A stretch of DNA of 64,000 nt from a virus. Below, piece after piece: positions 6,627 to 56,099 of the stretch. The notes beneath the pieces were generated by a model, which worked only from the letters and a program-made list of their open reading frames with translations, did not search any database and was not told where the DNA came from. Every line of letters begins with the position of its first letter. Position 1 is the stretch's first letter. The DNA is taken from the IMG/VR virus record IMGVR_UViG_3300002064_000002, one strand, 5' to 3'. Made by a program: the position numbers and the translations under genes.

Positions 6627-6629
6627 AAT

Positions 6630-9760: not shown

Positions 9761-9797
9761 AATTATTATTATTTACTTTTATAAGTTAAGCATTTTT

Positions 9798-10475
9798 CTA
9801 GTAATAAGCCAAATTGTACTTAGGATTGTTGGAATAGTTAGGTTTGAATCCTGTAGAATACGCTGATCTTTCCACTCCTTGTACTGCAAGAGGTTGACCA
9901 TGCACACTGGAATACCCTACATCTTTTGACCTTCCTATCTGCTTATTGTTATGTATAGCTGTACTAGAATCCCAATAATTACTTATTTGAGGAAAGTTTT
10001 TACTGTAGGTCTTATTATAGGGCCTGTTATCTAATATGGTACCATTACCCACTACTCCACCATGTACTGCTTTTGGTTTAGTCTTGTATACTGGAATACC
10101 ACCATATCTTCCTACTGTAGTTACATCTCCACCAAATCCTACATGCGGATCATTATATCCAAATGTCTGTTTAGGAGTATCTACAAATGAATCATAATAC
10201 TGATTAGATCTTCTGTTATCATAGTAGTCCTGGTTCACTCTACCTTGATTATAATTATATAGTGCATTGGATCCTGCATTGAGAGCTCCAAATGCTCCCA
10301 TTAGATTTGCTCTGCTATTTGTCTGTCCTCTAGCTATAGAACTATCATAGTTACTTTGGTAACTAGGTAGCGCTCCTAGTAGTGAGTTTACAGAATCTTG
10401 CTGATATCCAGTATAGGGATTGTAATACGTTCCATACCTGGCTTCTTTCTTTTTCATATATCTTCCCAAGCTCAT
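9798..10475 (-). CDS. Putative virion cargo protein, 225 aa
   Basis: Directly follows the muzzle gene; Tyr/Gly/Asn-rich; RYGT, RYGG and VHGG motifs. Confidence 0.55.
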   Translation of the reverse strand: MSLGRYMKKKEARYGTYYNPYTGYQQDSVNSLLGALPSYQSNYDSSIARGQTNSRANLMGAFGALNAGSNALYNYNQGRVNQDYYDNRRSNQYYDSFVDTPKQTFGYNDPHVGFGGDVTTVGRYGGIPVYKTKPKAVHGGVVGNGTILDNRPYNKTYSKNFPQISNYWDSSTAIHNNKQIGRSKDVGYSSVHGQPLAVQGVERSAYSTGFKPNYSNNPKYNLAYY

Positions 10476-10477
10476 AA

Positions 10478-13400: not shown

Positions 13401-15883
13401 GTTACCTTATAGCAATCACCTTGTAAGCCGGTATTAGGATCATTGCCAAACTCATCACATTCACATTTCTCATCTGCTTGTTGAGTGTTAGTTCCTTCTG
13501 TAGTATTCTCTCCTTTAATAGTTCCTGCACTACCTATCTGTATTCCAGTAGGAGGGGCTCCTATTGTACCAGGAACAGTGTTAATAATAATAGGAATACT
13601 AGTAGTAAGCACTGTTCCTGTTATAGGATCAACGGTTACTGTAGCGCCTATGCCACCATTATTAGTAGTATCTTCATCTACAGTTTCTGTAGTATCTACA
13701 TCAGTAATTACTGCAGCTTTTCTAATGCATTCTTTCATTACTTCAGTCTCCTTACATACTTGACCAGAGAGAGCAAATGCAGCTTCTGCTATACCTGCAG
13801 TTTGAGATACTAATTCAGCTAATTGACTTGGTAACTGATATTTAGGATAATCTTTAGTTTCATGATAAAGCCCCTCTACCCTGCCTACTTCTTCAGAGTA
13901 AAGACAAAGTTCTTGTCCATTACCTCCTTTCACATAGTGAATATCCGGAGAATGAAAAGTAAATTCTTGTTGACTATAGTCATTTAACCCAGTCCACTGA
14001 CCAAAGTTATCTCTCTCATTACCAGGATTAGTAAGGAACTGATCCTCACACAGGTCATTGAATGGATAGTTAGGATACTTTACTGGATCTTCCTCACAGG
14101 TCTTTTCTATATTTCCTGTATTAAAAAGTAGTCCTTTATGTAAAATCGATTGGTTCTGCTGTCTATCTTCTACATGAATCTGATATCCTTTAACTGGTAT
14201 AGGATTTCCATTCATGTCTAATGGTGGTTGTATATTCTCAAAAGCAATAGCCATTATATTGACACATGCTTCTCTACACTTTACATCTGGATTAATAAGT
14301 GTATCTGAAGTATCTCCAGAATACTGTAAACTATTATTGTGAATATGCGCTACATTAATAACTGTACCATCGTTTTTAGTATAACTAACACAATTACTAG
14401 GAAATTTATGGTATCTAATTGGCTTACATCTTAGCTCTATACATGGGTAATCTTCAGGATAGAAATAATCTCTACTTTCCCAATACGCGAATAAACCTTC
14501 TGCTTCTACTTCTTCTTCACATTGAGCACAATTTAGTCCTCCTCCTAAAGGATCAAGGCCATCTTCTCCACTTTGTTGTTCATCTACTATATTCACATTT
14601 GTTACTGTAGCTGTATTATATATCTCCCAGTACTTCTTATCAATTTGATCACAGCTTGATTGAGTAACTTCAAAATTATCATTATTTATCTCTGCATTAG
14701 AGTTAGAATCAAATCCAATGTGATCTCCAATAAAAGTACTAAGAGCATCTGATGGTATATGCGTTTTGTGGGACCAAGATCCATTAGGTAACTGCCATGA
14801 GATGTAGTGACTATATACCTCATCTCTCATATAACTAGGATACTTCCCAGCATTACTAGCGCTTACTCTAACACTTTTCCATTTACTTTTTATCTGACAA
14901 GCCTGAGGTCTATAATCAAAATTGAATCCTAACTTAGGTTGTGCAAGGATAAGTGATTCATTATTCACATCAAGAAATTCAGATCCTCTGATATAAGGAC
15001 TTTGCTGAAGTAGTAGTGCGTTTTCTACTATCTGATTTTCATTAGTATCTAATCTATTAATACCTACCTGATTCTGGCTGGCATGAAAATAACCTACTCT
15101 TTGTGCTTCAGTGCCTCTATCTTCTCTATGCGCTATAAGAACTACTTCGTACTGATCAAATGTATCTGATATACATCCTTCAAATTCTATATTGATTCCA
15201 AATGTATTATTGTCTTTATCAAATAACTTGATAACTTGAGGTAGTATATGGTAATCACTAATTCTTTGTCCATTTTCTGTGAATGCTATAGCTATCTGAT
15301 ATACTCCTCCAGGAATAAGGCCTCCTGTATAATTAGTAATAGTTGGACAAGGCCATTTGATGCATCTACTAAGTTCTAATGCTTCACAGTCTACATCTGA
15401 ACTGAATTCATCCTTACAGTCATCACAGTCTGTAAGACTTTTATAAGGAATACATTTCTCTATGTCAAATATCTTAGGTGTAAGGCATTGATTGGTCCAA
15501 TAGATTCTAGGGCTTCCTTCATATAGTTTATATGAACCTACTATTTCATCAGGCGTATGTATACATTCTGAAATGAGCTTGGTAGTACTAGTACAAGTAT
15601 TAGCATCGAACAGATCTATTCTTCCTTTCTCTCCATCATCTAGAATAATAGCAAATCTCTCTTGATCCAATCTTATAGCTCCTCTATATTCCCAACCAGT
15701 AGGAAACTCATAGCATAAGCTATTTCCTAAAACATTCTGTACAAATGAAATATTACCTTCATTTTCATAGCCTGATATATCTCCATTAAGAAGATAATGG
15801 ATATCTCCGCTCTTCTGTAAAAGAGGGTGTTTGTCACTAGAAAGATGTATTCCTGCAAATATGTTCTGTCCTATATTATTCAT
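10478..15883 (-). CDS. Tail muzzle / stabilisation protein (P22 gp10-like crAss family), about 1800 aa
   Basis: Contains YMRDEVYSHYISWQLPNGSWSHKTHIP, IRYHKFP and IIYSN..DNWLTF segments typical of crAss-like tail stabilisation proteins, and follows the ring proteins. Likely start is ATG 15883 (MNNIGQ), overlapping the upstream stop, rather than 15919. Confidence 0.8.
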   Translation of the reverse strand: MNNIGQNIFAGIHLSSDKHPLLQKSGDIHYLLNGDISGYENEGNISFVQNVLGNSLCYEFPTGWEYRGAIRLDQERFAIILDDGEKGRIDLFDANTCTSTTKLISECIHTPDEIVGSYKLYEGSPRIYWTNQCLTPKIFDIEKCIPYKSLTDCDDCKDEFSSDVDCEALELSRCIKWPCPTITNYTGGLIPGGVYQIAIAFTENGQRISDYHILPQVIKLFDKDNNTFGINIEFEGCISDTFDQYEVVLIAHREDRGTEAQRVGYFHASQNQVGINRLDTNENQIVENALLLQQSPYIRGSEFLDVNNESLILAQPKLGFNFDYRPQACQIKSKWKSVRVSASNAGKYPSYMRDEVYSHYISWQLPNGSWSHKTHIPSDALSTFIGDHIGFDSNSNAEINNDNFEVTQSSCDQIDKKYWEIYNTATVTNVNIVDEQQSGEDGLDPLGGGLNCAQCEEEVEAEGLFAYWESRDYFYPEDYPCIELRCKPIRYHKFPSNCVSYTKNDGTVINVAHIHNNSLQYSGDTSDTLINPDVKCREACVNIMAIAFENIQPPLDMNGNPIPVKGYQIHVEDRQQNQSILHKGLLFNTGNIEKTCEEDPVKYPNYPFNDLCEDQFLTNPGNERDNFGQWTGLNDYSQQEFTFHSPDIHYVKGGNGQELCLYSEEVGRVEGLYHETKDYPKYQLPSQLAELVSQTAGIAEAAFALSGQVCKETEVMKECIRKAAVITDVDTTETVDEDTTNNGGIGATVTVDPITGTVLTTSIPIIINTVPGTIGAPPTGIQIGSAGTIKGENTTEGTNTQQADEKCECDEFGNDPNTGLQGDCYKVTEFAITNGPGDPVMDAVNPCALINPTLFNKQAELHLRVSGLTAGCSTSITICVEECTQNLGGIVTLPTCNIVEYGPIQVNSDGWVSVELNRKTSTYCGNPLLGGTFSQTSPTFSSLSEVQRSVKWADQCPCLGDVITGTKTTTNECSDQQGFIDSLPLVEQLPTLLFHYSQGINTADNIVKSFITPRNYAIQYTAKADYNAYNCKNIKKGNIRRSIELSQDVQPIRQTLNDGTRVDNWCGAFSRYLKLNAPLENPCEKDKTRLLYSDVFCPQDQNADLEDCNTGVSFGYCSTASDPETDEEVPIQAVSYYAGVKQSLPNQYQGINAGITKAVTCSSMSEDTGCIFGGDIYISQFQVVRKKPFFSNLPLTLPPNTDFNLRLNWLCAETRYWMDTTQKSVFAKAIQGIIPGISSAFIDNDYVLEPIQELGVCIKPINIDLPDPIVRLINTIGFGVIADNDADGDMVPDDLNGSDSGGGELTQLLIDILETIVGTLIPGLNGSPRSDYLSRPGVFYTHVTGVACFWGESKFNSDWRVCSEVAESQPYPLRDLADIACATDYHNRELHLYNLQYCFNGIHRQDLPENTVDLCDPEIAYNEIIYSNRTNVDGGKDNWLTFPPLNRHVFSNKDGRFTCIRAIDDYRLLVAFEDAMYVTQPEDSLTTNSGQEIYLGSPNIFDRRLQRLSDECTGFGGTIDCNSIVNTRYGVFWFDRKRKRFLNYTNQIQDVSAEMRSWFKEYANGEIIATYDNCSDNIYITDKDTGWTLTYKPAMQQFISHNSFVPDEYMCLPNNILSRNDKGLWKHNDKYCYNTYYGKTYPFEIGFLMKKEIQVHTLQSLEIYSEWKEYRGYDCSILKKNEWFDQVLVYNDCYSTGLVDTFIKDPENENHVCPPGKVGVNLMEGCIARINGLQNAQVTPPFICRDDNGCTYTLPAKQKTNTDQFNDIRGKWFKVHLRENNNKDCKITVQLALAMFETIKQ

Positions 15884-25895: not shown

Positions 25896-27635
25896 TTATG
25901 CTCTTGCAAGCGATGTATTATTTTTACCAAAAGTAGGGTCATAAATCGGTCTACCATTGAATGGATTAATTGGCTTAATAAGAAGAGACTTAGTAATGTC
26001 CTTCACAAAGTAAGCTTTGTGTCTCTTTTCCATGAACACCTCAAAACCTGGGTGGTGGTTAGATCTCTGCCAGCTACCTGAATTACCAAATGTATTACCC
26101 ATGTATGCCATCTTTCCTTGTATTACAGAATGTCTATAATCCCAATCCGGACCGTATACTAACTCAACTATATTACCTGAATCTGCATTCGTGATATCAT
26201 CGATGATAAACATATAACTAGATAATCTATGTCCACCAATTCCTTTACTCATTGGTACAATAGGATTAACCTGTGGATTAGCATCAATAGGATCAAGACC
26301 TGGAGCTAATTCAAAACTTACATTACCGTATCCGTTGGCCATTTCCCAGTTGTTAAATTCTGGATTTGTCCAACCTAGTCCTTGGTTATTGTTCTTACCA
26401 ATACCAGTGATATAGTCATTACCTTGAAGTACCATACCTGCTTTACTAGGCTGTCTTCGTAGCATATTCTTAATAAGCGCTAGTCCACCTTGACCAGTCT
26501 TAATTACAATCTTATTACCTTTGAATGGTTCAATTCTGTCCTTAATTCTACTAGCAAGGATAAACTCAAACTTCTCTAATGTAAAGTTAAATAGATTGTA
26601 AATATGTTGATTACCCATATTCAATTGGTGGAAAAGACCAAGACTTGATTGTGCTTTTGTCTTACCATCATAATCAATTAATCCACCTGAACCCCAGATA
26701 GCTTCTTGTTCTACCATAGCTTCAAGCCATGCCATACCTAGTGCTTCTATCTTAGGTACCCACATTCTCTTCACTATATCATACTTCATGGCATCTTTAT
26801 ACTTAGAGCCATACTTTTTCTGATATCCGGCTTTGAGCATTTGAGGACCATGTCCTTGTAGAGAAAGATCATAACCAGTTGAACCTGGTCTAAATACATA
26901 CATTTCTACAATCTCTCTATACTTATCCAATCCAGCTACTGTCTCCTTAGAGATCTTTGAGAAAGCTGCATCTCTAGTTACAGAATAGTGTAGTTGAGCA
27001 GATGTATAACCTACTGTATTAAAGTACTCTCTCATTCCACCTGAGAATGTTGGAATACTAGAATAAGTTTCAGAGTATTCCGTTTCCACTGTAGTAATAG
27101 GGAAAAACTTAGTACCTGGTCTTAAATATTCTTTTGGAAACCAACGGTTTGCTTGGTCGACTGACTTTAGCTTTACCGTTAAGATTACTCCGTCACCATC
27201 TTCGATGATTTCATCTGGAGTAATTAGGAGGTGGTGAGGGTCATGCTGATCTACTGCTATAATATAACCATGATCATACTTTCTTTTGTTCACTTTGATT
27301 TTGAACTTCTCACCGGCTATACCTGGTTTATCTCTTCCTGAGATGTCTTCCATAATATAGCATGGTTCATCATGAGTAGGGTGTCCCCACTTAAAGATGT
27401 GCCCATCTACATAAACTCTATTCTGGCCCATGTTGGAGAAAGAATAAAGATATGGTTTCATTAAATAACCAGCAGTGACAAAAGGTTGTACAATACCTAA
27501 GTCTGTGATTTTTTCTTTTCCTCTACTGAGATGTTTTACGTGAGATTGATCTAAGTGAGAGTGGTGGTCATACTCTGTAGTCTGTAAATAGACTCCGTTG
27601 TTAAGTACTAAGGGTGTTGTTCCTCTATTTGCCAT
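25896..27635 (-). CDS. Major capsid protein (crAss-like)
   Basis: 579 aa; KPGIAGEKFKIK..KYDHG, REYFNTVG and IVIKTGQGG features; follows portal and scaffold-like genes. Confidence 0.85.
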   Translation of the reverse strand: MANRGTTPLVLNNGVYLQTTEYDHHSHLDQSHVKHLSRGKEKITDLGIVQPFVTAGYLMKPYLYSFSNMGQNRVYVDGHIFKWGHPTHDEPCYIMEDISGRDKPGIAGEKFKIKVNKRKYDHGYIIAVDQHDPHHLLITPDEIIEDGDGVILTVKLKSVDQANRWFPKEYLRPGTKFFPITTVETEYSETYSSIPTFSGGMREYFNTVGYTSAQLHYSVTRDAAFSKISKETVAGLDKYREIVEMYVFRPGSTGYDLSLQGHGPQMLKAGYQKKYGSKYKDAMKYDIVKRMWVPKIEALGMAWLEAMVEQEAIWGSGGLIDYDGKTKAQSSLGLFHQLNMGNQHIYNLFNFTLEKFEFILASRIKDRIEPFKGNKIVIKTGQGGLALIKNMLRRQPSKAGMVLQGNDYITGIGKNNNQGLGWTNPEFNNWEMANGYGNVSFELAPGLDPIDANPQVNPIVPMSKGIGGHRLSSYMFIIDDITNADSGNIVELVYGPDWDYRHSVIQGKMAYMGNTFGNSGSWQRSNHHPGFEVFMEKRHKAYFVKDITKSLLIKPINPFNGRPIYDPTFGKNNTSLARA

Positions 27636-28870: not shown

Positions 28871-31534
28871 TTAGTCTAAAACTTTTGTTCTTTTATTTCT
28901 AGCTATGATATCTTTCTCTCTTATTTCTAGCTCCCTATCCTTTTGTTCTAGTTGCTTCAACTTCACTTTTTCTTCCAGTTCATCTCTGATTCCGTCTCTA
29001 TCTGCATTCCTCTGATCTATGCCTGCTTTCTGTTCAAACATAGCTCTATCATAGTTCAACTTATCATAGTACTCCTTCTGTCTTTGGTTCTCACTTTGTA
29101 GTTCCAAGATCTCTTGCTGTATAGTATTGGCATCATCATTAGAATCACCAACTGCTTTAATTTGTGCTACTAGAATATCTTTAGCTCTATCTTTATCATT
29201 CTCTATAGCTTCTGCTTGTATCTTCTTATCTTCTAGCTCTTGCATAGCCTGCATTTGTTGCTGCTGCGCCTGTTGCTGAGCCTGCTGTTGCTTCTCTTGT
29301 TGCTCCATTCTCTCCTGAGTAAGCGCCTTTAGTTTATTAATAGTCTCTGGAATAGATTTACTAGAAAGTACTGATGCTATATCTTCTAGTGGAGTACCTG
29401 CTGCTTGATTAGCCGCATAACTATGTATCTGTTGTAAGATATTAGCATCTGCTACATTAGATTCTCCGTAGATCTGGAATGTATTGAGTAGGAACCCTTC
29501 AGTGTTAATATTAAATATGACCCTCATTCCATCAGAGTTCATATAATTTATGGAAGATTCTGGAGATTCGCTGGCTATGTATTGAGCAGTCTCTATCATA
29601 CCCATTCTCAATCTCTTCATTATGACATCTAGTCTGGTAAATAGATGCTGAATGAGTACTGATGACCTTTGTGCTCCTTGTGCTACAAGAGTGGCTGACA
29701 TTCTAGGCTCTACTTTACCGAACATATAGTCCTGGCTAAGGCCCACCTGATTATAGAACTCATTTTTAATACTCTGAGCTATCTGTATCTTCTCTAAAAC
29801 ATCGCTTGTTTTATTAAGATCCACTACTTGACCTACACCACCATGTATCTGCATAGCAGATTGGCCAAGATTGGAAAGGCTAGTATCCAATGGCGCTATG
29901 CCAACATCTCTAGCTGTCATCATGAACTTGAGAAGATTGTTATTACCCCAGCTTTCTCCCATTGACTCTGTAGGAATAGTAGCTTGATTGAAAAGAAGAA
30001 ACTTACCTACTTCAGTAGTAATAAGCTGCTGGTTTCTATTCCAGATCCAGTTATAGTATATTTGCCAAGGAGCTCCCATTTCTGTAAAACTCTTACTTTG
30101 ATTATATTTGTTAGTAACCGGTCCACCATAAACAGGCATGCTAGTTCCATATCTACTTTTGCCATCAGAATATTGGATCTTGTACTTATCTAACTCTACC
30201 CATATCTCATGATTACTGTTCCCCGTGGAACCATATGTATATCCAGATACATTTAAGCTAATCTTCTTAGCTCTCCATAACTGGTTGACATAAAACCAAT
30301 CTACATGTTCTCCTTCTACTAATGTCTCTACAGTTTTTATCTTACTGTCTTTTCTATACTTAGGTTTGAAGGTTACTTTAAAGCTATCATCTACCAAGTC
30401 AGAAAACATTACATCTCCTTTCTTATATGTATACTTTCCTACCTTTTGAGGTAGATTGAAGTAAACTGTAGTCTTCTTAACCATATGATTTGAATCATAT
30501 GGTGATCTTGAAGCTCCATGATGAAGATATCCTGAATGTTGATAAGCAGAGCCTGTAACATAAGCTCTGCCTCTATCCATATCTCTGAACTGTAGATAAT
30601 TCTGAGTGGATTCAAAATCTTGAAGTCTATTACCAGTTATGGCACCAGCTTGTCCATTCACTACAAATCCCTGTGCAGCATATGTATTCAACCAACTATT
30701 TACTGATTCCAAGCTATCTGCTGATAAATCTTCAGATAGTTCATTGATAAGAGTGGTAATGGTGGATTCTTCTTCATAACCGAACATCATACTTTCTGAG
30801 TAGCATTCGGATTCTGGATCCTTTATATAGAAACATTTTGCAGGATTAAGAACTTTTGGGTAGTAATCTCCATCATGACATTCTATTGTAACTGCTGGAT
30901 GTTCTGTAACCATAATTTCTTTAAGCACTTTTCTCTCCAAAGACTTTATGTCATGCTTTCTATCATCCACCCTGACAATATGATTGGCCCACTTCTCTAT
31001 TTCCGTCCTATAATCTTTTGTATAATACCCTTGTATCTTCTTACTCTCCATAAAGAGCTTTTGTTGCTCCTCATCAGCATTAGGGTTCTGTGCTAGGAAA
31101 GCTTCTTGAGCTTTAGTAACTAGTAACTGCCTTAATTCATTATTAAGAGATTCTAGTACATTATTACTATTCTCCGGATTGATAGCTCTTACATAGAATT
31201 CGGAGTACTTCTTGTCATTCTCTCCAAGAACAACATTAATGGCATTAGGAATGAGAGGGTAAAATGAAAGACCTATATCCTCTAGTCTAGAATCCTTAAG
31301 ATCAAATTCTAATTCTTCAGGTATTTCTTCATCCAGGTAATCTTCTATATCAATTACTCCTTCTGCTAGATTGTTCAGCTTTCTGAACTTCTCTTGCTTA
31401 TCCATAAGCTGAGATCTTCCCACTGCAATGAAGTAATTAACTACTTCTTGAACTAACGCAGACCCCATGCCTGTTTTAGGATCAAATTTATCTTTTTCCT
31501 TTATTAGGAGATTTAGTTTTCCTGCTGTATTCAT
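28871..31534 (-). CDS. Portal protein
   Basis: 887 aa directly after the terminase; FYPLIPNAINVVLGE, PWQIYYNWIWN and a Gln-rich C-terminal coiled coil. Confidence 0.85.
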   Translation of the reverse strand: MNTAGKLNLLIKEKDKFDPKTGMGSALVQEVVNYFIAVGRSQLMDKQEKFRKLNNLAEGVIDIEDYLDEEIPEELEFDLKDSRLEDIGLSFYPLIPNAINVVLGENDKKYSEFYVRAINPENSNNVLESLNNELRQLLVTKAQEAFLAQNPNADEEQQKLFMESKKIQGYYTKDYRTEIEKWANHIVRVDDRKHDIKSLERKVLKEIMVTEHPAVTIECHDGDYYPKVLNPAKCFYIKDPESECYSESMMFGYEEESTITTLINELSEDLSADSLESVNSWLNTYAAQGFVVNGQAGAITGNRLQDFESTQNYLQFRDMDRGRAYVTGSAYQHSGYLHHGASRSPYDSNHMVKKTTVYFNLPQKVGKYTYKKGDVMFSDLVDDSFKVTFKPKYRKDSKIKTVETLVEGEHVDWFYVNQLWRAKKISLNVSGYTYGSTGNSNHEIWVELDKYKIQYSDGKSRYGTSMPVYGGPVTNKYNQSKSFTEMGAPWQIYYNWIWNRNQQLITTEVGKFLLFNQATIPTESMGESWGNNNLLKFMMTARDVGIAPLDTSLSNLGQSAMQIHGGVGQVVDLNKTSDVLEKIQIAQSIKNEFYNQVGLSQDYMFGKVEPRMSATLVAQGAQRSSVLIQHLFTRLDVIMKRLRMGMIETAQYIASESPESSINYMNSDGMRVIFNINTEGFLLNTFQIYGESNVADANILQQIHSYAANQAAGTPLEDIASVLSSKSIPETINKLKALTQERMEQQEKQQQAQQQAQQQQMQAMQELEDKKIQAEAIENDKDRAKDILVAQIKAVGDSNDDANTIQQEILELQSENQRQKEYYDKLNYDRAMFEQKAGIDQRNADRDGIRDELEEKVKLKQLEQKDRELEIREKDIIARNKRTKVLD

Positions 31535-33612
31535 AAAAAAGGTGATCTTGTTCTTCTTCTACCCAATGCCGATCTTGACATAGTTCTACTATAATTTACG
31601 ACTTTTTTAACTTCTTTGCTTTTACTCTGTACTTTCAGTCCTCTATTGGTATTAGATTTAGCTGCTAAAAGGGTGAGGCCGAATGCATCGATCCTATCAT
31701 TATTACTCTTTGGCTTCCAGTCTAGCATTTCTCTAAGAAGCATTTTATCCTTGATTCTGGTTACTCCATAGATATCTTGACTCTTACCGGTCTTATCATC
31801 ATATCTCACATCGATTACTTCTGTGACATATTCTACTACCAAAGACAGGAGATACTTTTTCATCTCTATAGAGATGTAAAGTCCATAATCAGAATTAGTA
31901 TAAGCCTTAATAACCATATCCTTGGAAATAGGAGCATCGGACTTTCTCATGATATGGACCTGCTCCCTTTCCTTGATCATCCATTCAAGGAAGTTTCTAT
32001 TATTATTCTCAATGAGAGCTCTAGCATTGTAATACTTGATAAGTTCTCTAGTAACCCTGTAGGTCTCATAAGGATCTTCTCTTCTACCAGTGTACCAGGC
32101 CACTATCTTTTCTTCTGAATATTCTCCGTTTATCTCATGAGCTGCTTTATAGATATAAATCGATTGAAGAGAAACTGTAGTACTACCAGCTACTGGAGAT
32201 ACTGTATCCACTCCTGCATAATACAGACCAAATGGTGCATTAGGATGAGGCGCTTCATCAATAACTATACATCCATTCTTATTACTGGCTCTTTTAACTG
32301 GGTGTTCTTCCACTATAGGATACTTGGATCCTATCTTATGCATAAATCCATACTCTGCCTCATGTAATGTTACATCCATAGGCTTATAGTTATGGATCAC
32401 CCAGTCATAATGTGGTTGTATAATATGTACTGGAAAGTCATTCTCTTCTCTACTAGCAAATGCATCTTCTATAGTTCGAGGTCTCTGAGACTTATAAATC
32501 ATATAAGACTTATAACTCTTTTGTTTCTCCAGCTCTGCTAATTCTTCTATTCTATCAACAGCTGCTTGTAATAGTGAATTTCCATTCTCATCTATACACT
32601 TACCATAAGAATATTCTTCAGGAATAAAACCACAAGTCAGTCTATCATGTCCGGACCATACATTAGGAAACCCTAGCATATTGTTAGCCTCTGGGCTATC
32701 AGAGATATCTTTAAGAGGTTTACTCTGCTTCAAATTACCAACTGCTCCTGCTATATGTACATATCCAGTAATTTGATCTCCCCATTGAAGTGCTGGTCGA
32801 GCATATTCTAGTACTTGATCTAAGTTAGGGGCTACCCCGGCTTCTTCCAGGTATATCTCATCCACTTTACCAGATACTACTGCTGCCGGGTTGTTCTTAT
32901 ATGTAATTCCCTTAAGCTTGGAGAATAAACCACGTTTGGTACCGTCCTCCATCTCAATATACTCTATCCAATTCTTTCTCTGGCCAGAGTTGTTTCTAAA
33001 CCATCCAGTATGTGTATTCAAGTGATTGGCATTTTGATCTAGAATAGACCATGCCTCATTTACGTATTTCTCGTCCCAGGCAGCTACTCTCCCAGAAAAT
33101 CCCTTTTCAAACCAGTACCTCTTGAGAATCTTTGCAAGGAACTTAAGAGATACACCTATTTGTCTTTTCTTTACCCAGGTAGTAAATTTATCAGTAAGCT
33201 CTGCTAATTCTACAGACTGAAACATCCATATATCAGTATCAAAGATATATGGAAGCGTAACATCATTATCCTGCTTGATGGGAATGGGAATGAAGTTTAA
33301 ATAGAAATAATGATCACCAGTTATATAGTAATCATTATCAATCAGTACTCCTTCATAGCACCTTTTTTTCTCCCTCTCCCAGAAACTGATCCAATCTCTG
33401 GTGCCTTCTACTAAATCTATATAAAGACCGGTTTCTTGCCATTTCTTTCCCACAGCCTGAACTTGATGTATTCTACTATCAAGATCCTGGTCTCCAGGAA
33501 GTTTCTTTAATCTCTCTATTAGATCAACCCTTTCTTCTTTAGAAAACGGTATACTGGACCACTCTCCTGTTTTTGAATTGTAAGTTGTAAGGTTTTCTTT
33601 GAATTTATACAT
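31531..33612 (-). CDS. terL: Terminase large subunit
   Basis: Walker A-like VKKRQIGVS, Walker B IYLEEAG, nuclease AGVDTV and NDRIDAF. Confidence 0.9.
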   Translation of the reverse strand: MYKFKENLTTYNSKTGEWSSIPFSKEERVDLIERLKKLPGDQDLDSRIHQVQAVGKKWQETGLYIDLVEGTRDWISFWEREKKRCYEGVLIDNDYYITGDHYFYLNFIPIPIKQDNDVTLPYIFDTDIWMFQSVELAELTDKFTTWVKKRQIGVSLKFLAKILKRYWFEKGFSGRVAAWDEKYVNEAWSILDQNANHLNTHTGWFRNNSGQRKNWIEYIEMEDGTKRGLFSKLKGITYKNNPAAVVSGKVDEIYLEEAGVAPNLDQVLEYARPALQWGDQITGYVHIAGAVGNLKQSKPLKDISDSPEANNMLGFPNVWSGHDRLTCGFIPEEYSYGKCIDENGNSLLQAAVDRIEELAELEKQKSYKSYMIYKSQRPRTIEDAFASREENDFPVHIIQPHYDWVIHNYKPMDVTLHEAEYGFMHKIGSKYPIVEEHPVKRASNKNGCIVIDEAPHPNAPFGLYYAGVDTVSPVAGSTTVSLQSIYIYKAAHEINGEYSEEKIVAWYTGRREDPYETYRVTRELIKYYNARALIENNNRNFLEWMIKEREQVHIMRKSDAPISKDMVIKAYTNSDYGLYISIEMKKYLLSLVVEYVTEVIDVRYDDKTGKSQDIYGVTRIKDKMLLREMLDWKPKSNNDRIDAFGLTLLAAKSNTNRGLKVQSKSKEVKKVVNYSRTMSRSALGRRRTRSPFL

Positions 33613-50059: not shown

Positions 50060-50281
50060 ATGAAATTTAAACCTGGAGATCGAATTAAAAGAATAGAAGG
50101 GAAAGAAACATTTTTAAAAACTGGAAATATTTATACTGTAGCAAATATGAATCCTCTTAATGACTGCAGAGTAATATTGGAAGGAGCTGATCATGATTCA
50201 ACTGATGATGAAGATCAAGGATTTTACGTAGATTATTTCAAGATGGTTACTTCTATTGATTTTTCTTACACAATTTATTAA
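50060..50281 (+). CDS. SH3/KOW-like FSYxIY-family protein, copy 1
   Basis: MKFKPGDRIKRI..GNIYTV..FKMVTSIDFSYTIY. Confidence 0.75.
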   Translation: MKFKPGDRIKRIEGKETFLKTGNIYTVANMNPLNDCRVILEGADHDSTDDEDQGFYVDYFKMVTSIDFSYTIY

Positions 50282-50292
50282 AACACACAGCA

Positions 50293-51579
50293 ATGAAATA
50301 TTTATGTATTGAGAATTCAGGACTCATTCTTCCTGATGATTTTAGTCTTATGGGTACATCTACTAAAGTAGGTAATAATAACAAAATAGGCCAATATGGA
50401 TCCGGTTTATGTTATGCTATAGGAGGACTTATGAGACCACCTCATAAATTACCTGTAGTATATTCTGGAAAAGAACAGATAACACTTGAAGCAAAAACTA
50501 TAGACTATAGAGATGCTCCAGTAAAAGTGCTACACGTTAATGGTGAAAAGACTTCTATTACTGAAAATCTTGGTAAAGAAGCTAAATGGTCTACATGGAT
50601 GCTTTGCAGGGAAATTCTGAGCAATGCCATAGATGAAGAAAATTTCAATTTATATCAAACTGATGAAATATTACCAATAGAAGATAAGAGTCAGATTTAT
50701 ATTTATATGAATGATGAGATAGATATGTTTCTAAAAAACTACAATCATTATTTTGCTTTTGATAGAAAAGAAGATTATACAGATGAAAAAGGTAATCGAT
50801 TCTTTTTAAAGAAATTTAAAAGCCCTATGGTAATATATCGTAAAGGCATCAGATGTTATGAAAATACTTATGCAGATGAATCTTTAGTAGATATAGATTT
50901 TGCTGATATTTATATTAATGAGTCTAGGGTAGCAGACATACATCAAATATATAGTAGAATTAAAGATGTGGTAAGTAATGCAGATGTTTCTGATAAAGTA
51001 ATGATAAAACTATTACAGCAAGGAAAAATTGATAAATCTCTTATTCCAGCTGTATCTAGTGTGTCTGATGAATTTTTTGAATCTATTAAAAGAATAAGCC
51101 AATTCACTAATATTATAACTAAAGAGATTGACCCTAATATAACTGGTTTAGAAGGAGATTCAGATATTGTATTACCTACTTCTTATTATCTAGAATTTCA
51201 AAAAAGAGGTTTTGTAGAAAATAAGTTTGAAATTATACAAGGGGCTCCAAGTGATTTTACTAAAAGTAAAAACATAGATCAAGATAAAATGAAAGAGATT
51301 AAATTTTATCTAAATCATTTCATGGAGAATAAAGGTATAAAAATACATGTAGGTAAATGGAGTAGTTCTGTTTATGATACTATACACAGTAATGAACATA
51401 ATTGTTTTTTCATAAAGAAACATATGTTTAATAATCGTGATACACCTACAATAGCTAGTAAGCTATTAAGAAATAGAAGTCAAGAATATTATTATAATAT
51501 ACTGGAGAAGAATTACAAAGAAGCTGTACTTGCTCAAGATTTTAACGAGCAACCAGTAGACGATTCTCTTCCATTCTAA
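50293..51579 (+). CDS. Circularly permuted GHKL ATPase with an SSB-like acidic tail
   Basis: IENSG and KIGQYGSGLCYAI precede REILSNAIDE; the protein ends PVDDSLPF. Confidence 0.7.
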   Translation: MKYLCIENSGLILPDDFSLMGTSTKVGNNNKIGQYGSGLCYAIGGLMRPPHKLPVVYSGKEQITLEAKTIDYRDAPVKVLHVNGEKTSITENLGKEAKWSTWMLCREILSNAIDEENFNLYQTDEILPIEDKSQIYIYMNDEIDMFLKNYNHYFAFDRKEDYTDEKGNRFFLKKFKSPMVIYRKGIRCYENTYADESLVDIDFADIYINESRVADIHQIYSRIKDVVSNADVSDKVMIKLLQQGKIDKSLIPAVSSVSDEFFESIKRISQFTNIITKEIDPNITGLEGDSDIVLPTSYYLEFQKRGFVENKFEIIQGAPSDFTKSKNIDQDKMKEIKFYLNHFMENKGIKIHVGKWSSSVYDTIHSNEHNCFFIKKHMFNNRDTPTIASKLLRNRSQEYYYNILEKNYKEAVLAQDFNEQPVDDSLPF

Positions 51580-51667
51580 GATGCTTTAGTTAATAATTCC
51601 GTTTTACAAGGCTCATCGCAATAATGTGGTGAGCCTTTTTATTCACATTTAAAAAATTAATACAGTT

Positions 51668-52135
51668 ATGGGTAAGAAGAAAAGTTCAAACGCAGAAATA
51701 GTTGAAGATTTAGATGCACAAATTGCTGCAATTGAATCTGGAGTAATGCCAGTAGGTGGAGTAACTACTACTACGTTACAAGGATTTGGTGATATTAATA
51801 ATATTACTGAATATCCTATTCTAAGAGCTGCTATGGCTAGTATATTAGTCAAGAGTGCAGCAGAAGAGAAAGCTGATAAATTATTAGCTGGTGAAGAAAC
51901 AGTGCCTGTTATTAAAATTGAAGGTAATACTCCAGATCAATGGACAGCCTTATTGAAGAACAGATATGTTGTGATAACCAATGATGCAGATCTGAAAGAA
52001 TTGAAAGAGCTTAGAGAAGAGTTTAGACAATTAGTAACAGATGAAGAGAAGCAAAAGATGGCAGAGAAAAAGAAGGAGAAGTTGCTGAAAAAATTTGCTG
52101 ACAGAGGTATTAACAATTCTACATTATTAAGATAA
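51668..52135 (+). CDS. Hypothetical protein
   Basis: 155 aa ORF after hairpin and leader. Confidence 0.6.
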   Translation: MGKKKSSNAEIVEDLDAQIAAIESGVMPVGGVTTTTLQGFGDINNITEYPILRAAMASILVKSAAEEKADKLLAGEETVPVIKIEGNTPDQWTALLKNRYVVITNDADLKELKELREEFRQLVTDEEKQKMAEKKKEKLLKKFADRGINNSTLLR

Positions 52136-52353
52136 TGGTACGCTTTAAACCAGGAGATAGGGTTAGGAGAATTGGTAGAAGTAATTCTTATATTAATAAA
52201 GGTAATTTAGCTACAGTAAGTGAAGTTTCTAAAGATCACAAAAGGATTCTTTTAGTAGAATATAAAGATTCTGGTTATGGAGTAGATTGTGGATTCTATT
52301 CTAATTATTTTGAACTTGTATCTTCTGCTAATTTTTCTTATTTAATCTATTAA
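52135..52353 (+). CDS. SH3/KOW-like FSYxIY-family protein, copy 2
   Basis: MVRFKPGDRVRRI..FELVSSANFSYLIY. Confidence 0.75.
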   Translation: MVRFKPGDRVRRIGRSNSYINKGNLATVSEVSKDHKRILLVEYKDSGYGVDCGFYSNYFELVSSANFSYLIY

Positions 52354-52476
52354 GTTAATTATTTAGTCCATTATACAGAGAGCGAGGTGAAAGCCTTGCT
52401 CTCTTTTTATTAACAATTAAAAAGACGAAGGAATAAGTAATATTATGTATATTGTGCAAACAATTTATCTAATATT

Positions 52477-53388
52477 ATGAAAGGAAAAATATACAGTTTG
52501 TCAGATCCATTTACATTAGAAGTAAGGTATATAGGATTTACTAGATCTACAATTAGTACTCGTTATAGTCAACATAAGCATGAAGCTATTAAGAAAAAAA
52601 AACTGAGTCATTTATATAATTGGTTTAGGGTTTGTATAGATAAAGGAAAATTACCACTGGTTGAAGTAAAAGAAGATAACATACCTATAGAAAAGTGGCA
52701 GGAGAGAGAACAACATTGGATAGACCAGTATGGGAATCTTACTAATCAAAAAAAAGGCGGGTGTGGAGTACATTTAAACACTAATAAAAAGGGCAGACTA
52801 AGAAGTATAGAAGCTAAAAGAATAGAAATAATACAATTAGATTTAAACGGAAATTACCTTAAAAGCTGGAGTTCTATGAGAAATGTAGAAAGACATTTTA
52901 GTGGGAAAAACACAGGATTACTAGCTAAAGCTAGTAAGACTATGGGAACAGCTTACGGCTATCTTTGGGTAAGAGGTGATGAATATGATTCTAATAAAGT
53001 TTATTTACCTAAGAATAAAGTAAAAATAGAAATATTTTTGTTTTGTGCATTTACTAGAAAATTTATAAAGAGGTATAATTGCAAAGCAGACTTAGATAGA
53101 GAATTAGATTTTGGGACTTCTACTGCTTGTTTAAGAAATAATCTATTATTAAGGAATACATATTACATTAGAGATAGCATAGTGGATAATTTAGTGCCTC
53201 CTACACCTACAGATGTATATCTATTCAACAAAAAGTACTATACTACTTACACTATTTTATGTAGAGAAAATAATATTCAGAATAAACTACATAACGTTAA
53301 GTTTAAAAAAAGTTTAATTACTAAAGCAGTAACTGAAGAAATGATACAACAACTAAGACTTTCTTTTAAAAACAGAAGAGGAAAATAA
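52477..53388 (+). CDS. Free-standing GIY-YIG homing endonuclease with a NUMOD1-like domain
   Basis: KIYSLSDP..RYIGFT..RYSQH..E..WI..LTN; IIQLDLNGNYLKSWSSM. Confidence 0.8.
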   Translation: MKGKIYSLSDPFTLEVRYIGFTRSTISTRYSQHKHEAIKKKKLSHLYNWFRVCIDKGKLPLVEVKEDNIPIEKWQEREQHWIDQYGNLTNQKKGGCGVHLNTNKKGRLRSIEAKRIEIIQLDLNGNYLKSWSSMRNVERHFSGKNTGLLAKASKTMGTAYGYLWVRGDEYDSNKVYLPKNKVKIEIFLFCAFTRKFIKRYNCKADLDRELDFGTSTACLRNNLLLRNTYYIRDSIVDNLVPPTPTDVYLFNKKYYTTYTILCRENNIQNKLHNVKFKKSLITKAVTEEMIQQLRLSFKNRRGK

Positions 53389-53416
53389 TTTTATTAACCG
53401 ATTAAATTTACACATC

Positions 53417-53629
53417 ATGCAAAAATCAGATACCCCCCACATTGAACTTAAAAGAGAAGACATTGTAGAGTTCAGACATTTGGCTTCTAAGACCAGGTTT
53501 GTAGTAAAACAAGTGCTAGGATCGGATGTACTTTTAGATAACCCTAAAAGTCCTAGAAGAAGACAAGGAAAAGATCTTCTTACTATGCCTATGAGAGATC
53601 TTGTTAAGATTAATGTTAAAGTGAATTAA
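53417..53629 (+). CDS. Small SH3/KOW-like protein without the FSYxIY tail
   Basis: LKREDIVEF..FVVKQV. Confidence 0.45.
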   Translation: MQKSDTPHIELKREDIVEFRHLASKTRFVVKQVLGSDVLLDNPKSPRRRQGKDLLTMPMRDLVKINVKVN

Positions 53630-53781
53630 CTTGGTATGTTATTTCAGAGTGGCAGATATCTATCTGCTGCTCTGTTTTTAAACCTTGAATTACAATGGAA
53701 ACAAATACAGATAAAGAAGATTTAACAATGCTCATAGCATTAGGTATAATTTTATTAGTGAATTTATTAAGCAGTTAAAGA

Positions 53782-54063
53782 ATGAATAAAAAATATTATA
53801 TATTAAAGAAAGGTAAAATGTTCTTCACTATAGAAGAAACTACTGAAGAAAGTAAGACTAGCGACTTACTTACAATAATGACAAGTATTATTTTATTTGG
53901 TTTATTAGGATTATATTCAGTAACGTATTCTACTACTTTATTCCCAGAAATTATATTGATAATTATAAGTGTAGTTTTTGTTCTTAAAAAGGGGAAAAGT
54001 GATAAAGAAGCAACTTATACTAAAGATGCTTTGATTATTAAACTGGAAAATGAACTGGAATGA
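53782..54063 (+). CDS. Membrane protein
   Basis: Two hydrophobic segments. Confidence 0.5.
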   Translation: MNKKYYILKKGKMFFTIEETTEESKTSDLLTIMTSIILFGLLGLYSVTYSTTLFPEIILIIISVVFVLKKGKSDKEATYTKDALIIKLENELE

Positions 54064-54254
54064 AATTTAAAAAAGGTGATAGAATAAAAAGAATTCATAA
54101 TAGTTCTTCATTAGAGAAAGGTAAAATTTATATTGTAAAAAAAATACACGGAACTTATTTGTCAGTAGAAGATAGTGCAAGAGAAAAACCGACTTATTTT
54201 TCTAAATATTTTGAACTGGTATCTGCAGCTAATTTTACTTACACTATTTATTAA
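54060..54254 (+). CDS. SH3/KOW-like FSYxIY-family protein, copy 3
   Basis: MKFKKGDRIKRI..FELVSAANFTYTIY. Confidence 0.75.
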   Translation: MKFKKGDRIKRIHNSSSLEKGKIYIVKKIHGTYLSVEDSAREKPTYFSKYFELVSAANFTYTIY

Positions 54255-54264
54255 ATCATTAATT

Positions 54265-54486
54265 ATGTTGAAAGAAGGAGATTTAAAAGTAGGAGATGAA
54301 GTTGTTGCTTTGGATACAGGTTATAGTAATAAATTGACTATTGGACACATTTATACAGTAAAAGATCTGGCAACTGAAGATAAACTTAGAAATGGCATTC
54401 TTCTACATGGCAGACCTAGTGCATATTGGCAAAGATATTCTAGTTTTAAACTAGTAACTAAAGAATTTTCATATTCTATTTATTAA
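54265..54486 (+). CDS. SH3/KOW-like FSYxIY-family protein, copy 4
   Basis: Start at ATG 54265: MLKEGDLKVGDEVVAL..FKLVTKEFSYSIY. Confidence 0.75.
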   Translation: MLKEGDLKVGDEVVALDTGYSNKLTIGHIYTVKDLATEDKLRNGILLHGRPSAYWQRYSSFKLVTKEFSYSIY

Positions 54487-54503
54487 CAATTAAAAACACA
54501 CAC

Positions 54504-55460
54504 ATGAAAAAAAATAAATTTGATGGTATAAGCGTAATGCTTATCATAGCAATAATAATTACACTAGTTTTTTTAGTACAAACACTTACAGCACAAGAAT
54601 CAGAAATTAGTTTTTGTAATAAAGAATGTACAAGTGTAGCATATCAATCTGCTTGTCTTCAATGTGAAGATGTTCGTATTGAAATTAATCCTGTTGTACC
54701 TTACACTATAAGTAATGATAGTCTTATAGTACAGTATAGTTCTAATGAAGAATTACAGATAACTATATATTTTACATTTGGTAGTTGTGTAGGTAGCAAT
54801 TGTGATCTAGATGTGGATCAACTACAGTACACAGTTTACTATACGCCTCCTTGTTGCGATCAATATATCTGTAGTTCAGAATATGATTGTACAATAGAGG
54901 AGACTTTTATAGATACTACTTTAAGTATATCTAATACTGGATGTAATGTTTATAATGTAGTAGAGCACATAGCCATACCACCAAGAGTAGATACTTTAGT
55001 TGTAGTGGATACAATTACATTAACACAAATAGATACTTTAGTTGTAGTAGAAACAGAGATTCAGATACAAATTGATACTATTACATTGTTAGAATTTGTG
55101 CCTATTACTGAATGGGATACTATTTATGTATATGATACAACTGTATTAGAAATAGTTTATAAAGAAGAATTAGTTGATGATATAGTTTATGTACCTAATG
55201 CAGTTAATCCTAATAATAGTAATTATGAGAATAGTTATTTTATGATATTTTCTAAAAAAGATTATTTAATAAAAGATTTAGAGATATTTGATAGATGGGG
55301 GAATTTAGTGCATGATTTACATATGACTAGTACTAATGTACAAGCATGGGACTGCACGTATAGAAATCAAAGCGTATCTGGAGTCTATAATTACAAATTT
55401 GAAGTAGATACTGGATCTGGATGGGTATTTTATAAAGGAAATTTTATAATTATTAAATAA
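54504..55460 (+). CDS. Secreted protein with a type B T9SS C-terminal domain (gliding-motility-associated CTD, CHU_C-like)
   Basis: Signal peptide ending LTA-Q; Cys-rich domain; D-T-[ILT] stalk; C-terminal YVPNAVNPN..F.I..LEIFDRWGNLV..WDCTY..GVYNYKF..KGNFIIIK. Confidence 0.85.
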   Translation: MKKNKFDGISVMLIIAIIITLVFLVQTLTAQESEISFCNKECTSVAYQSACLQCEDVRIEINPVVPYTISNDSLIVQYSSNEELQITIYFTFGSCVGSNCDLDVDQLQYTVYYTPPCCDQYICSSEYDCTIEETFIDTTLSISNTGCNVYNVVEHIAIPPRVDTLVVVDTITLTQIDTLVVVETEIQIQIDTITLLEFVPITEWDTIYVYDTTVLEIVYKEELVDDIVYVPNAVNPNNSNYENSYFMIFSKKDYLIKDLEIFDRWGNLVHDLHMTSTNVQAWDCTYRNQSVSGVYNYKFEVDTGSGWVFYKGNFIIIK

Positions 55461-55660
55461 TGATTTTTAAAAAAGGAGATTTAGTAAAAAGAATTAAAAG
55501 TAATTGGGGAGGAATTAATGTAGGAGATATTTATATTGTAGCAGAAGATACAAAGCCTGGTTTAAACCATGTTAAACTTACTATAGATTCTGAGATTAAT
55601 TATAGAAAAGACTTATTTAAGTTAATATCTAGTACACAATTCTCTTATACAATATATTAA
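55460..55660 (+). CDS. SH3/KOW-like FSYxIY-family protein, copy 5
   Basis: MIFKKGDLVKRI..FKLISSTQFSYTIY. Confidence 0.75.
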   Translation: MIFKKGDLVKRIKSNWGGINVGDIYIVAEDTKPGLNHVKLTIDSEINYRKDLFKLISSTQFSYTIY

Positions 55661-55662
55661 TT

Positions 55663-55875
55663 ATGAAAAGAAAATTATTTAAGAAAGGCGACAGAGTAAA
55701 AAGAATAAATAATTCTATTGGAAATATAATTAAAGGAAAAATCTACACTATATTAAAAGATGAAATTTCTGAACATCAAGAATTACTTTTAGTAGAATGT
55801 CCTAGTAAATATTACTATTATTCTAGCTCATTTAGATTAGTATCTTCTGTAGAATTTTCATACACAATATATTAA
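55663..55875 (+). CDS. SH3/KOW-like FSYxIY-family protein, copy 6
   Basis: LFKKGDRVKRI..FRLVSSVEFSYTIY. Confidence 0.75.
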   Translation: MKRKLFKKGDRVKRINNSIGNIIKGKIYTILKDEISEHQELLLVECPSKYYYYSSSFRLVSSVEFSYTIY

Positions 55876-55877
55876 TT

Positions 55878-56099
55878 ATGAAACAACGAACATTTAAAGT
55901 AGGAAACAAGGTAAAGAGAGTTCCAAATTATTGTGGAAATCTTTTTAAAAAGGATCAGATCTATACGATCTCAGAGTTAATACTACAAAGAGATAAAACT
56001 ATAAATCTAGGAATTAAAGGTGTACCTTATATAAATGGCTATGATTCTAATTTATTTGTACTTGTAGAAAAGACTGAATTTTCATACTCAATTTATTAA
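55878..56099 (+). CDS. SH3/KOW-like FSYxIY-family protein, copy 7
   Basis: TFKVGNKVKRV..FVLVEKTEFSYSIY. Confidence 0.75.
   Translation: MKQRTFKVGNKVKRVPNYCGNLFKKDQIYTISELILQRDKTINLGIKGVPYINGYDSNLFVLVEKTEFSYSIY

Follow-up and report, generated by a model that had tools for sequence, protein, structure and literature searches.

An aromatic C-terminal tail shared by seven small barrel proteins of a phage as a possible portable docking tag

In a 64,000-nucleotide stretch of phage DNA (IMG/VR virus record IMGVR_UViG_3300002064_000002; the whole of this stretch is called the window below), the plus strand of region 50060-56099 carries seven open reading frames (ORFs) of 64-73 aa, each closing with F-[ST]-Y-[TSL]-I-Y and a TAA stop codon. 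Their products share a three-part architecture: a variable body with the predicted fold of a small KOW/SH3-like barrel, a short spacer, and a nearly constant aromatic hexapeptide at the extreme C-terminus. Most homologous barrels lack this tail, and in other phages related tails are carried by unrelated small proteins. We propose that the tail is a C-terminal motif that would dock on a shared hub, with the variable barrels as heads, and put the probability of this reading at roughly 40%. The present evidence does not separate it from a reading of the tail as a degradation signal (degron); we rank docking first and the degron close behind. The C-terminal tag appears to be undescribed and is apparently portable across folds and phages.

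Results

Seven ORFs end in the same aromatic hexapeptide

An earlier note, made from the letters of the window alone, had described seven ORFs with a common tail. All seven are found on the plus strand where it had placed them (Table 1), and the gene callers of public assemblies agree: in contigs nearly identical to the window, all seven copies are called in L002, six in L001 and L004, and the first four or five in the shorter L003 and L005. A six-frame scan with the pattern [FYWL][STA][YF]x[IVL][YF]-stop returned the seven copies and two junk ORFs (18 and 27 aa), and a comparable C-terminal end was found on no other predicted protein of the 64-kb window. The copy number is a lower bound, the stretch examined being ~30.3-115.8 kb (~85 kb) of a 139 kb contig.

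Pairwise alignment of the copies gave identities to copy 1 of 30-42%, and the seven are paralogues with a variable middle. The alignment keeps the N-terminal F/L-K-x-G-D/N-x-V/I, the strand G/D-x-I/L-Y/A-T/I-V/I, the F-x-L/M-V/I and the tail, all motifs that the earlier note had read from the sequence, and varies between them. The last six columns have a mean pairwise identity of 84%, against 34% for the body; no other six columns in a row are as well conserved, those of the N-terminal F-K-x-G-D-x-V included. The N-terminus that diverges most is that of copy 4 (L-K-V-G-D-E-V). By isoelectric point, copy 1 is acidic and copy 4 near neutral; the other five are basic. The start codon of copy 2 overlaps (ATGA) the stop codon of an upstream 155 aa gene.

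Table 1. The seven tailed ORFs, with positions in the window
Feature	Position	Strand	Length (aa)	pI	Tail	Remarks
Copy 1	50060-50281	+	73	4.7	F-S-Y-T-I-Y	acidic; spacer T-S-I-D
Copy 1 tail codons	50261-50278	+
Copy 1 stop codon	50279-50281	+
Copy 2	52135-52353	+	72	9.4	F-S-Y-L-I-Y
Copy 3	54060-54254	+	64	9.8	F-T-Y-T-I-Y
Copy 4	54265-54486	+	73	8.0	F-S-Y-S-I-Y	length from the ATG at 54265
Copy 5	55460-55660	+	66	9.3	F-S-Y-T-I-Y
Copy 6	55663-55875	+	70	9.6	F-S-Y-T-I-Y
Copy 7	55878-56099	+	73	9.6	F-S-Y-S-I-Y	G-N for G-D in the first strand

The tail appears to be selected as a peptide and added to the barrel

Between the last strand of the barrel (F-x-L/M-V/I) and the hexapeptide lies a mostly polar spacer of 3-4 residues (T-S-I-D, S-S-A-N, S-A-A-N, T-K-E, S-S-T-Q, S-S-V-E, E-K-T-E). 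Three positions of the tail are invariant, and the core common to all tail-bearing phage lineages described below is an aromatic residue at -3, Ile or Leu at -1 and an aromatic residue at 0, the C-terminus. Synonymous changes, or switches between Ser and Thr codons, affect five of the six tail codons (TTT/TTC; TCT/TCA/ACT; TAC/TAT; ACA/ACT/TCT/TCA/TTA; ATT/ATC/ATA), with a mean third-position identity of 57%, and the final TAT TAA is invariant in all copies. Because the tail codons differ synonymously and the DNA 3' of the stop is not conserved, selection acts on the tail peptide and not on the DNA, as the earlier note had argued from the synonymous changes.

We also considered the tail as a core strand of the fold, since the earlier note had named a buried core strand in all homologues as the finding that would speak against its proposal. 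This is ruled out: homologous barrels end at F-x-L-V without a tail, so the tail is an add-on made of the spacer and the aromatic hexapeptide.

Several known C-terminal signals were tried and rejected. The tail has no Gln or Leu at the positions that define a beta-clamp-binding motif (Q-L-[SD]-L-F or Q-L-x-L-x-L, Gln first), and the copies have neither the acidic run nor the Pro-Phe expected of a mimic of the SSB C-terminal tail (acidic run followed by [IL]-P-F-COOH). An ssrA-type ClpXP degron would end in L-A-A-COOH, and the tails end in T/S/L-I-Y; the proteasomal HbYX motif has a penultimate Tyr, and the Tyr residues of the tail stand at -3 and 0, not at -1. A tag encoded by tmRNA was set aside as well, ARAGORN finding no tmRNA in the window. 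The class I PDZ ligand pattern that the earlier note had pointed out, [ST]-x-hydrophobic at the C-terminus, is indeed present in six of the seven copies. The related tails of other phages carry E, Q or D at -2, so the pattern is not kept there, and PDZ gave no match among 29 phage proteins scanned with Pfam (20 window neighbours and 9 further along the contig). Bacterial PDZ proteases are mostly extracytoplasmic, and by inspection none of the seven proteins has a signal peptide. The relevance of PDZ domains to the tail is thus doubtful.

The body is a predicted KOW/SH3-like barrel from a widespread phage domain family

AlphaFold2 gave a small beta-barrel for copy 1 from a 7-sequence alignment (mean pLDDT 74; mean 49 over the last three residues) and for copy 6 from a 106-sequence alignment (mean pLDDT 82). 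The copy 6 model has four DSSP strands (residues 11-14, 27-33, 40-43 and 57-61) plus a short bridge; residues 62-70 are coil, so that the tail is not a strand of the barrel. The earlier note had suggested docking by beta-strand addition, to which this coil lends no support. The best VIA-align match was the KOW domain of Spt5, with Z 8.5 and an rmsd of 2.0 over 60 residues; uL24 (Z 6-7), PsaE and NdhS (~Z 6), NusG KOW and SH3 domains came next. Foldseek against the PDB gave weak matches only (E 0.01 or worse), the Atlas search agrees at lower confidence, and the family has weak profile matches to Spt5 and uL24. In Pfam, including KOW (PF00467) and the SH3 families, none of the seven proteins reaches the cut-off and there is no KOW match at any threshold; the best score is at chance level (for example DUF6211, 18 bits against a cut-off of 25). 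From the two models and the Spt5 match, the bodies are predicted to fold as KOW/SH3-like barrels, in agreement with the fold suggested in the earlier note.

The family profile search that the earlier note had proposed revealed a widespread domain: against 1.8 billion representatives, the seven-copy profile matched 722 cluster representatives at E ≤ 1e-3 and 52 at 1e-10. Outside the seven copies themselves, the matches mostly run from profile positions 1-3 to 58-62 of 69 (ends 56-68) and thus do not extend through the tail. Among the matches listed, nearly all others consist of 2-6 tandem repeats of the same domain in one polypeptide; when 153 proteins were re-scanned, 152 had a domain match and at least two repeats were found in 134 of these, in a list biased towards summed scores. 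In the tandem-repeat proteins a short acidic linker connects F-E-L-V to the F-K-V-G-D of the next repeat, and in the alignment of homologues G, D, F and L are nearly invariant. Reciprocal though weak matches (E 3e-6 to 3e-3) connect the family to phrog_4317, phrog_13152 and phrog_4927, whose function is not annotated, and to phrog_14634, which is labelled DNA-binding protein. The barrel domain is sometimes fused to DUF3310 or to nucleotide-kinase-like domains.

The window copies therefore belong to the sequence family of this phage FKxGDxV...FELV domain and have its KOW/SH3-like fold, with conservation in the first, second and last strands. They differ in that they are single domains encoded by separate genes and carry a spacer and an aromatic tail, whereas the relatives are mostly repeated, or are fused, and end in F-E-L-V plus an acidic linker. 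The barrel is a stand-alone variant of a widespread, uncharacterised phage domain family, in which only the tail is unusual. The earlier note had known of no described family with this tail. This holds for the tail, and keyword searches of open-access text found no published description of it or of the tandem barrel family; it does not hold for the barrel, which belongs to a large, uncharacterised phage domain family.

Among single-domain homologues of at most 100 aa, 41 of 42 lack this tail, and many carry other short C-terminal extensions that end in aromatic residues. Because such different aromatic-ended extensions are present on other single-domain homologues, a barrel plus a terminal peptide appears to be a recurring design. 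Metagenomic stand-alone barrels of this kind (P0170, P0213, P0251, P0276 and P0179) end in P-T-D-L-P-F, L-P-K-W-F, L-P-G-W-F, L-P-A-W-W and D-W-S-K-V-F, and the first of these ends resembles the SSB tail.

Related tails are carried by barrels and unrelated proteins in other phages

To judge from metagenomic contigs, three other phage lineages bear related tails on barrels, and two of them also on unrelated small proteins. In contig L125 (NCBI GCA_040384425.1, 5.2 kb), 11 small ORFs (at 1-4116) of 19 called genes end in [YF]-[EQD]-I-F. Eight of these are barrels and three belong to another family, which resembles the barrel profile only in the 7-residue tail (hhalign); the tail codons show the same peptide-level conservation pattern as in the window copies. 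A strain relative, L127 (NCBI GCA_040384165.1), has the same tail type at 581-1643, where indels of 2 nt and 1 nt mean that the tail of two copies can be read only after a change of frame; either assembly errors or recent frameshifts would account for them. A second lineage is represented by contig L126, with one barrel that ends in Y-E-L-W directly after a polymerase gene.

The third, L217 (ENA ERZ2485795 NODE_72, 88,969 bp; first 14.8 kb), has tails on 19 of the 46 small genes upstream of its family A DNA polymerase (PolA), at 514-10944. Eight genes have a type A tail, ...Y-[E/P]-I-[YW], and 11 a type B tail, ...N-K-G-[KR]-[FY]-S-I-x. The tailed bodies are barrels and other sequences, most of them without BLAST similarity to each other, and two pairs of BLAST-similar bodies bear different tails. 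The arrangement resembles a two-letter code in which small phage proteins carry one of two C-terminal tags.

The tail-bearing phages appear to be only distantly related to the window phage: the PolA of L217 is 29% identical to that of the window, and between L125/L127 and the window phage no shared protein was detected beyond the barrels. Barrel genes are present in all four tail-bearing contigs, three of which have several. Because related tails stand on unrelated bodies and are swapped between similar ones, the tail behaves as a portable module, whatever fold carries it; this portability is the weightiest addition to what the earlier note had described. The number of tail-bearing lineages is small, and they are known from incomplete metagenomic contigs, of which some contain N gaps and apparent frameshifts.

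Searches with DNA patterns added no further lineage. A single-tail pattern matched at least 119 loci in IMG/VR, all of them junk ORFs; two-tail patterns gave nothing in IMG/VR and one chance match in JGI metagenomes; and a type B pattern gave two chance matches only. In the L125 relatives L128-L130, tail arrays were not found near the shared 209 aa gene. Polymerase-like proteins of these and the L126 contigs (L128:7232-9349, L130:7275-9287, L126:2-397) end in N-Q-L-S-M-F or N-Q-I-S-L-F, the canonical beta-clamp-binding motif at the extreme C-terminus.

Strains vary in the heads and keep the tail

Over 5-18 kb, contigs from other samples match the window at 99.1-100% identity. In one of these, L001, the stretch that corresponds to 55471-55850 (copies 5 and 6) is replaced, within flanking DNA of 99.1-99.4% identity. 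Beyond a scaffold gap of 10 N a single copy stands there, which shares 52% identity with copy 5 and 41% with copy 6 and has an identical tail; the gap leaves the exact structure of the copy 5-6 stretch uncertain, and the numbers are small. The few single-nucleotide polymorphisms in other copies fall in the variable middle or the N-terminus and never in the tail, as in the strain variants of copy 3, which affect residues 43, 44 and 47 of the variable middle. This would be the pattern of diversifying heads on a constant handle. The earlier note had proposed an adaptor system with a constant tail on variable heads, and this part gains support from the strain allele, the unrelated tailed bodies and the tail swaps; the scans of neighbouring proteins described below yielded no hub on which such adaptors would dock, and the anti-defence role that the note had also suggested gained no support. 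Elsewhere in the strain contigs, L003 has ~180 extra bases at 41226/41227 and L001 ~290 at 60092/60093, with flanks otherwise 99-100% identical.

Genome context

The window corresponds to ~30.3-94.3 kb of a 139,065 bp ENA phage scaffold; its DNA (GC ~30%) occurs in runs labelled algae metagenome. The nearest terminase in IMG/VR is 43% identical and others at most 28%. Among GenBank phages there was no DNA match of the window, a tblastn search with copy 6 returned nothing, and the family is absent from five related or comparison genomes (three complete). The structural module lies on the minus strand (large terminase 31531-33612, portal 28871-31534, major head protein 25896-27635), and the plus strand of the family also carries a GIY-YIG homing endonuclease, a ParB-like protein and PolA. 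The end of this PolA, ...S-Q-L-S-L-I-W-E-H, was considered as a clamp motif and rejected; it resembles the usual C-terminus of a family A polymerase.

The earlier note had made two statements on neighbouring genes. The gene at 54504-55460, which it regarded as a type IX secretion (T9SS) substrate, does have a CHU_C type IX secretion domain in Pfam, and the domain would fit a Bacteroidota host. The 428 aa neighbour of copy 1 (50293-51579), which it labelled a GHKL ATPase, finds no sequence match in Pfam or the PDB to sustain that label; it matches only phrog_8203 (function not annotated), and a search for relatives gave none. This protein ends in D-D-S-L-P-F, like the bacterial SSB C-terminal tail, and strain contig L005 is without window positions 50533-50677, the gene there being called as 379 aa. 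No functional link of either gene to the family was found.

Pfam and PHROG scans of ~35 neighbouring proteins showed no peptide-binding domain that might serve as a reader of the tail. Further along the same contig, to the right of the family, the phage encodes a 495 aa classical-clade AAA ATPase (L215:13924-15411; Pfam PF00004) with best PDB matches to VAT, Cdc48/p97, FtsH and Rpt subunits (E 3e-13).

Shared C-terminal regions are also present elsewhere in this phage. Four adjacent genes at L211:14359-15388 share the C-terminal region G-P-[IV]-[IV]-x-[IVF]-x-x-[IV]-Y-x-[HQ]-[LIM], and an adjacent gene pair at L211:8660-9213 shares ...K-E-G-x-x-Y-W-x-x-[FI]-x-x-D-F-x-P. Far from the family, ARAGORN called an 87 nt tRNA-Pyl with anticodon CTA (amber suppressor type) at window 15591-15677 on the minus strand, inside the 5' part of a 1813 aa ORF; the call may be false or may bear on the true start of this ORF.

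Discussion

A portable tag that may dock on a shared hub

We hypothesize that, specifically in this lineage, a common phage binding domain expanded into the seven genes for stand-alone KOW/SH3-like barrels. Each protein consists of a variable head, the barrel, with loops that differ between copies and strains; the mostly polar spacer after F-x-L-V; and the constant aromatic hexapeptide with its free carboxylate. The hexapeptide would be a portable short linear motif with the core aromatic(-3)-x-[I/L](-1)-aromatic(0), read in trans, that plugs all members into the same pocket of one shared host or phage partner. Different barrels might then bring different targets, either proteins or nucleic acids, to the hub machine, or act on this machine in different ways, and the outcome would be recruitment and not destruction. 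We rank docking first because the three invariant positions suit a defined pocket, because a barrel with a terminal peptide recurs in the family, and because similar bodies that trade one tail type for the other suggest re-routing.

Several observations weigh against docking on a hub. The 29 phage proteins scanned with Pfam include no PDZ, TPR or clamp-like protein, and no RNA sequencing run holding the region was found. Up to 19 co-expressed proteins competing for one pocket would be awkward for a hub and natural for a degron. In the copy 6 model residues 61-70 have a mean pLDDT of 75, which may mean that the tail packs on its own barrel. Finally, tails of the exact type were found in only four rarely sampled phage lineages, which limits the generality of the proposal.

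As a wider and more tentative extension, the aromatic-x-[I/L]-aromatic tails and the basic N-K-G-K-F-S-I-x type might together form a modular address code of AT-rich, probably Bacteroidota, phages, exchanged among dozens of unrelated small proteins and routing them to one or two dedicated readers; the seven barrels would then be one diversifying set of heads. Candidate readers of such a code are a host AAA+ protease, a replication hub and the phage's own classical AAA ATPase.

Alternative readings of the tail

The tail might instead be a C-terminal degron, read by a host AAA+ protease (Lon, ClpXP/ClpAP or FtsH) or by a phage AAA ATPase, a serious alternative that we nonetheless consider somewhat unlikely. 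One tag on many unrelated small proteins of one phage would suit a shared clearance without competition for a site, and the classical-clade AAA ATPase of the window phage is absent from the five relatives that also lack the family (three of them complete genomes). Lon prefers aromatic-rich tags such as the SulA C-terminus, Parsell, Silber and Sauer are said to have reported in 1990 that non-polar C-terminal residues destabilise E. coli proteins, and the type B tail of L217, basic and then aliphatic, presumably resembles the MuA-type ClpX motif; all three count for a degron. However, the tails are unlike the L-A-A end of ssrA that a ClpXP mimic would copy, and three strictly invariant positions are more in keeping with a defined pocket than with the loose preference of Lon. 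Two different tails on similar bodies would have no obvious rationale as degrons, and the AAA ATPase gene lies ~45 kb from the family.

We think it improbable that the tail serves self-assembly, by binding to the barrels or adding a strand to a neighbouring barrel, so that a hetero-oligomer would mimic the tandem-repeat proteins and recruit the tagged proteins that are not barrels. SH3-like barrels do bind short peptides and Sm-like barrels form rings, in its relatives the window barrel domain usually recurs 2-6 times within one covalent chain, and barrel genes accompany the tail in every tail-bearing contig (4/4). Yet the linkers of the tandem repeats are acidic, unlike the tail, and most of the tagged proteins of L217 are not barrels; moreover, L001 shows one copy in place of copies 5 and 6 (with the scaffold gap there), so the copy number does not seem to be fixed.

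An address tag for the virion, by which the tail would bind the procapsid interior, the scaffold or the portal and so have the small proteins packaged along with the DNA and ejected with it, has still less in its favour. Common terminal peptides on unrelated cargo are a signature of virion or cargo targeting, as in the T4 internal proteins and encapsulin, and most copies are basic (pI 9.3-9.8). Tails on unrelated bodies are found in L125 and L217 only, though, and the tail has no counterpart at the end of any structural-module protein of the window; the genes occupy the strand opposite to this module, among replication-type genes, and those of L217 just upstream of PolA.

We regard as comparably improbable, and if anything slightly more so, that the tail is an intramolecular cap which packs on its own barrel, where it would stabilise the fold or occlude a groove with no partner in trans. 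The pLDDT of the C-terminal residues in the copy 6 model is higher than expected for a free tail, but homologous barrels fold without one, the tail is coil in that model, the last three residues of the copy 1 model have low pLDDT, and such tails stand on unrelated bodies and are exchanged between similar ones. Finally, a nucleotide-level explanation, in which a 3' DNA or RNA element, translational coupling or recent gene conversion would leave the peptide as a by-product, could draw on the invariant TAT TAA and on the next ATG lying 2 bases on in three copies and 10 or 11 in two, but we reject it on the synonymous variation and the unconserved downstream DNA, with spacers of 123 and 54 nt following copies 2 and 7 and the L125 tails showing the same peptide-level pattern.

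Implications

Most small genes in the non-structural regions of phages are functional dark matter. If the tail is a portable tag, it would give an experimental handle on some of them: a synthetic peptide could fish out its reader, and the tag would mark small proteins that act via the same host or phage machine and would be transferable for Bacteroidota biology. If the tag is a degron, it would show how the phages schedule the clearance of small proteins of this kind. An arms race would be expected to leave just such a signature, variable heads on a constant handle together with allele replacement between strains, which makes the family worth searching for functions in host takeover or counter-defence.

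Comparison with known systems

In fold, the copies match the KOW domains of Spt5 and NusG, uL24, PsaE, NdhS and SH3 domains, although a shared fold shows no shared function; unlike the KOW proteins, the window copies have no Pfam KOW match and no NGN or ribosomal context. The tail is most readily likened to C-terminal peptides that dock on hubs, such as the SSB tail D-D-D-I-P-F, the beta-clamp motif Q-L-[SD]-L-F, the SspB tail on ClpX and the gp45-binding tails of T4. These too are short hydrophobic or aromatic sequences at the extreme C-terminus, behind a flexible spacer, and bring many proteins to one hub pocket. F-S-Y-T-I-Y differs from them in having no Gln-Leu start, no acidic run and no Pro-Phe. 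In cargo peptides (the C-terminal loading peptides of encapsulins, the T4 capsid targeting sequence) and in degrons (ssrA, MuA, SulA), one terminal peptide likewise decides the fate of a protein; the window tail has no sequence similarity to these, and its genes lie outside the structural module.

For the heads, a precedent is offered by T4 MotB, an early, basic, nucleic acid/DNA-binding phage protein with a predicted N-terminal KOW-like domain (PMC7827196). The likeness, drawn from the published description, is that of a KOW-like small barrel in an early phage protein; MotB differs in being fused to an OB fold, in being encoded by a single-copy gene, and in having no shared C-terminal tag (PMC7827196). 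For the expansion, Bacillus phage G has ~35 zinc-ribbon copies, a lineage-specific expansion of a small domain in a large phage (PMC7824862). Both cases involve tandem, fast-diverging small paralogues, and the window family differs in its domain and its tail. The window-type tail, moreover, recurs in distantly related phages and on bodies of unrelated sequence, and two tail types that appear to be exchangeable occur together in one phage.

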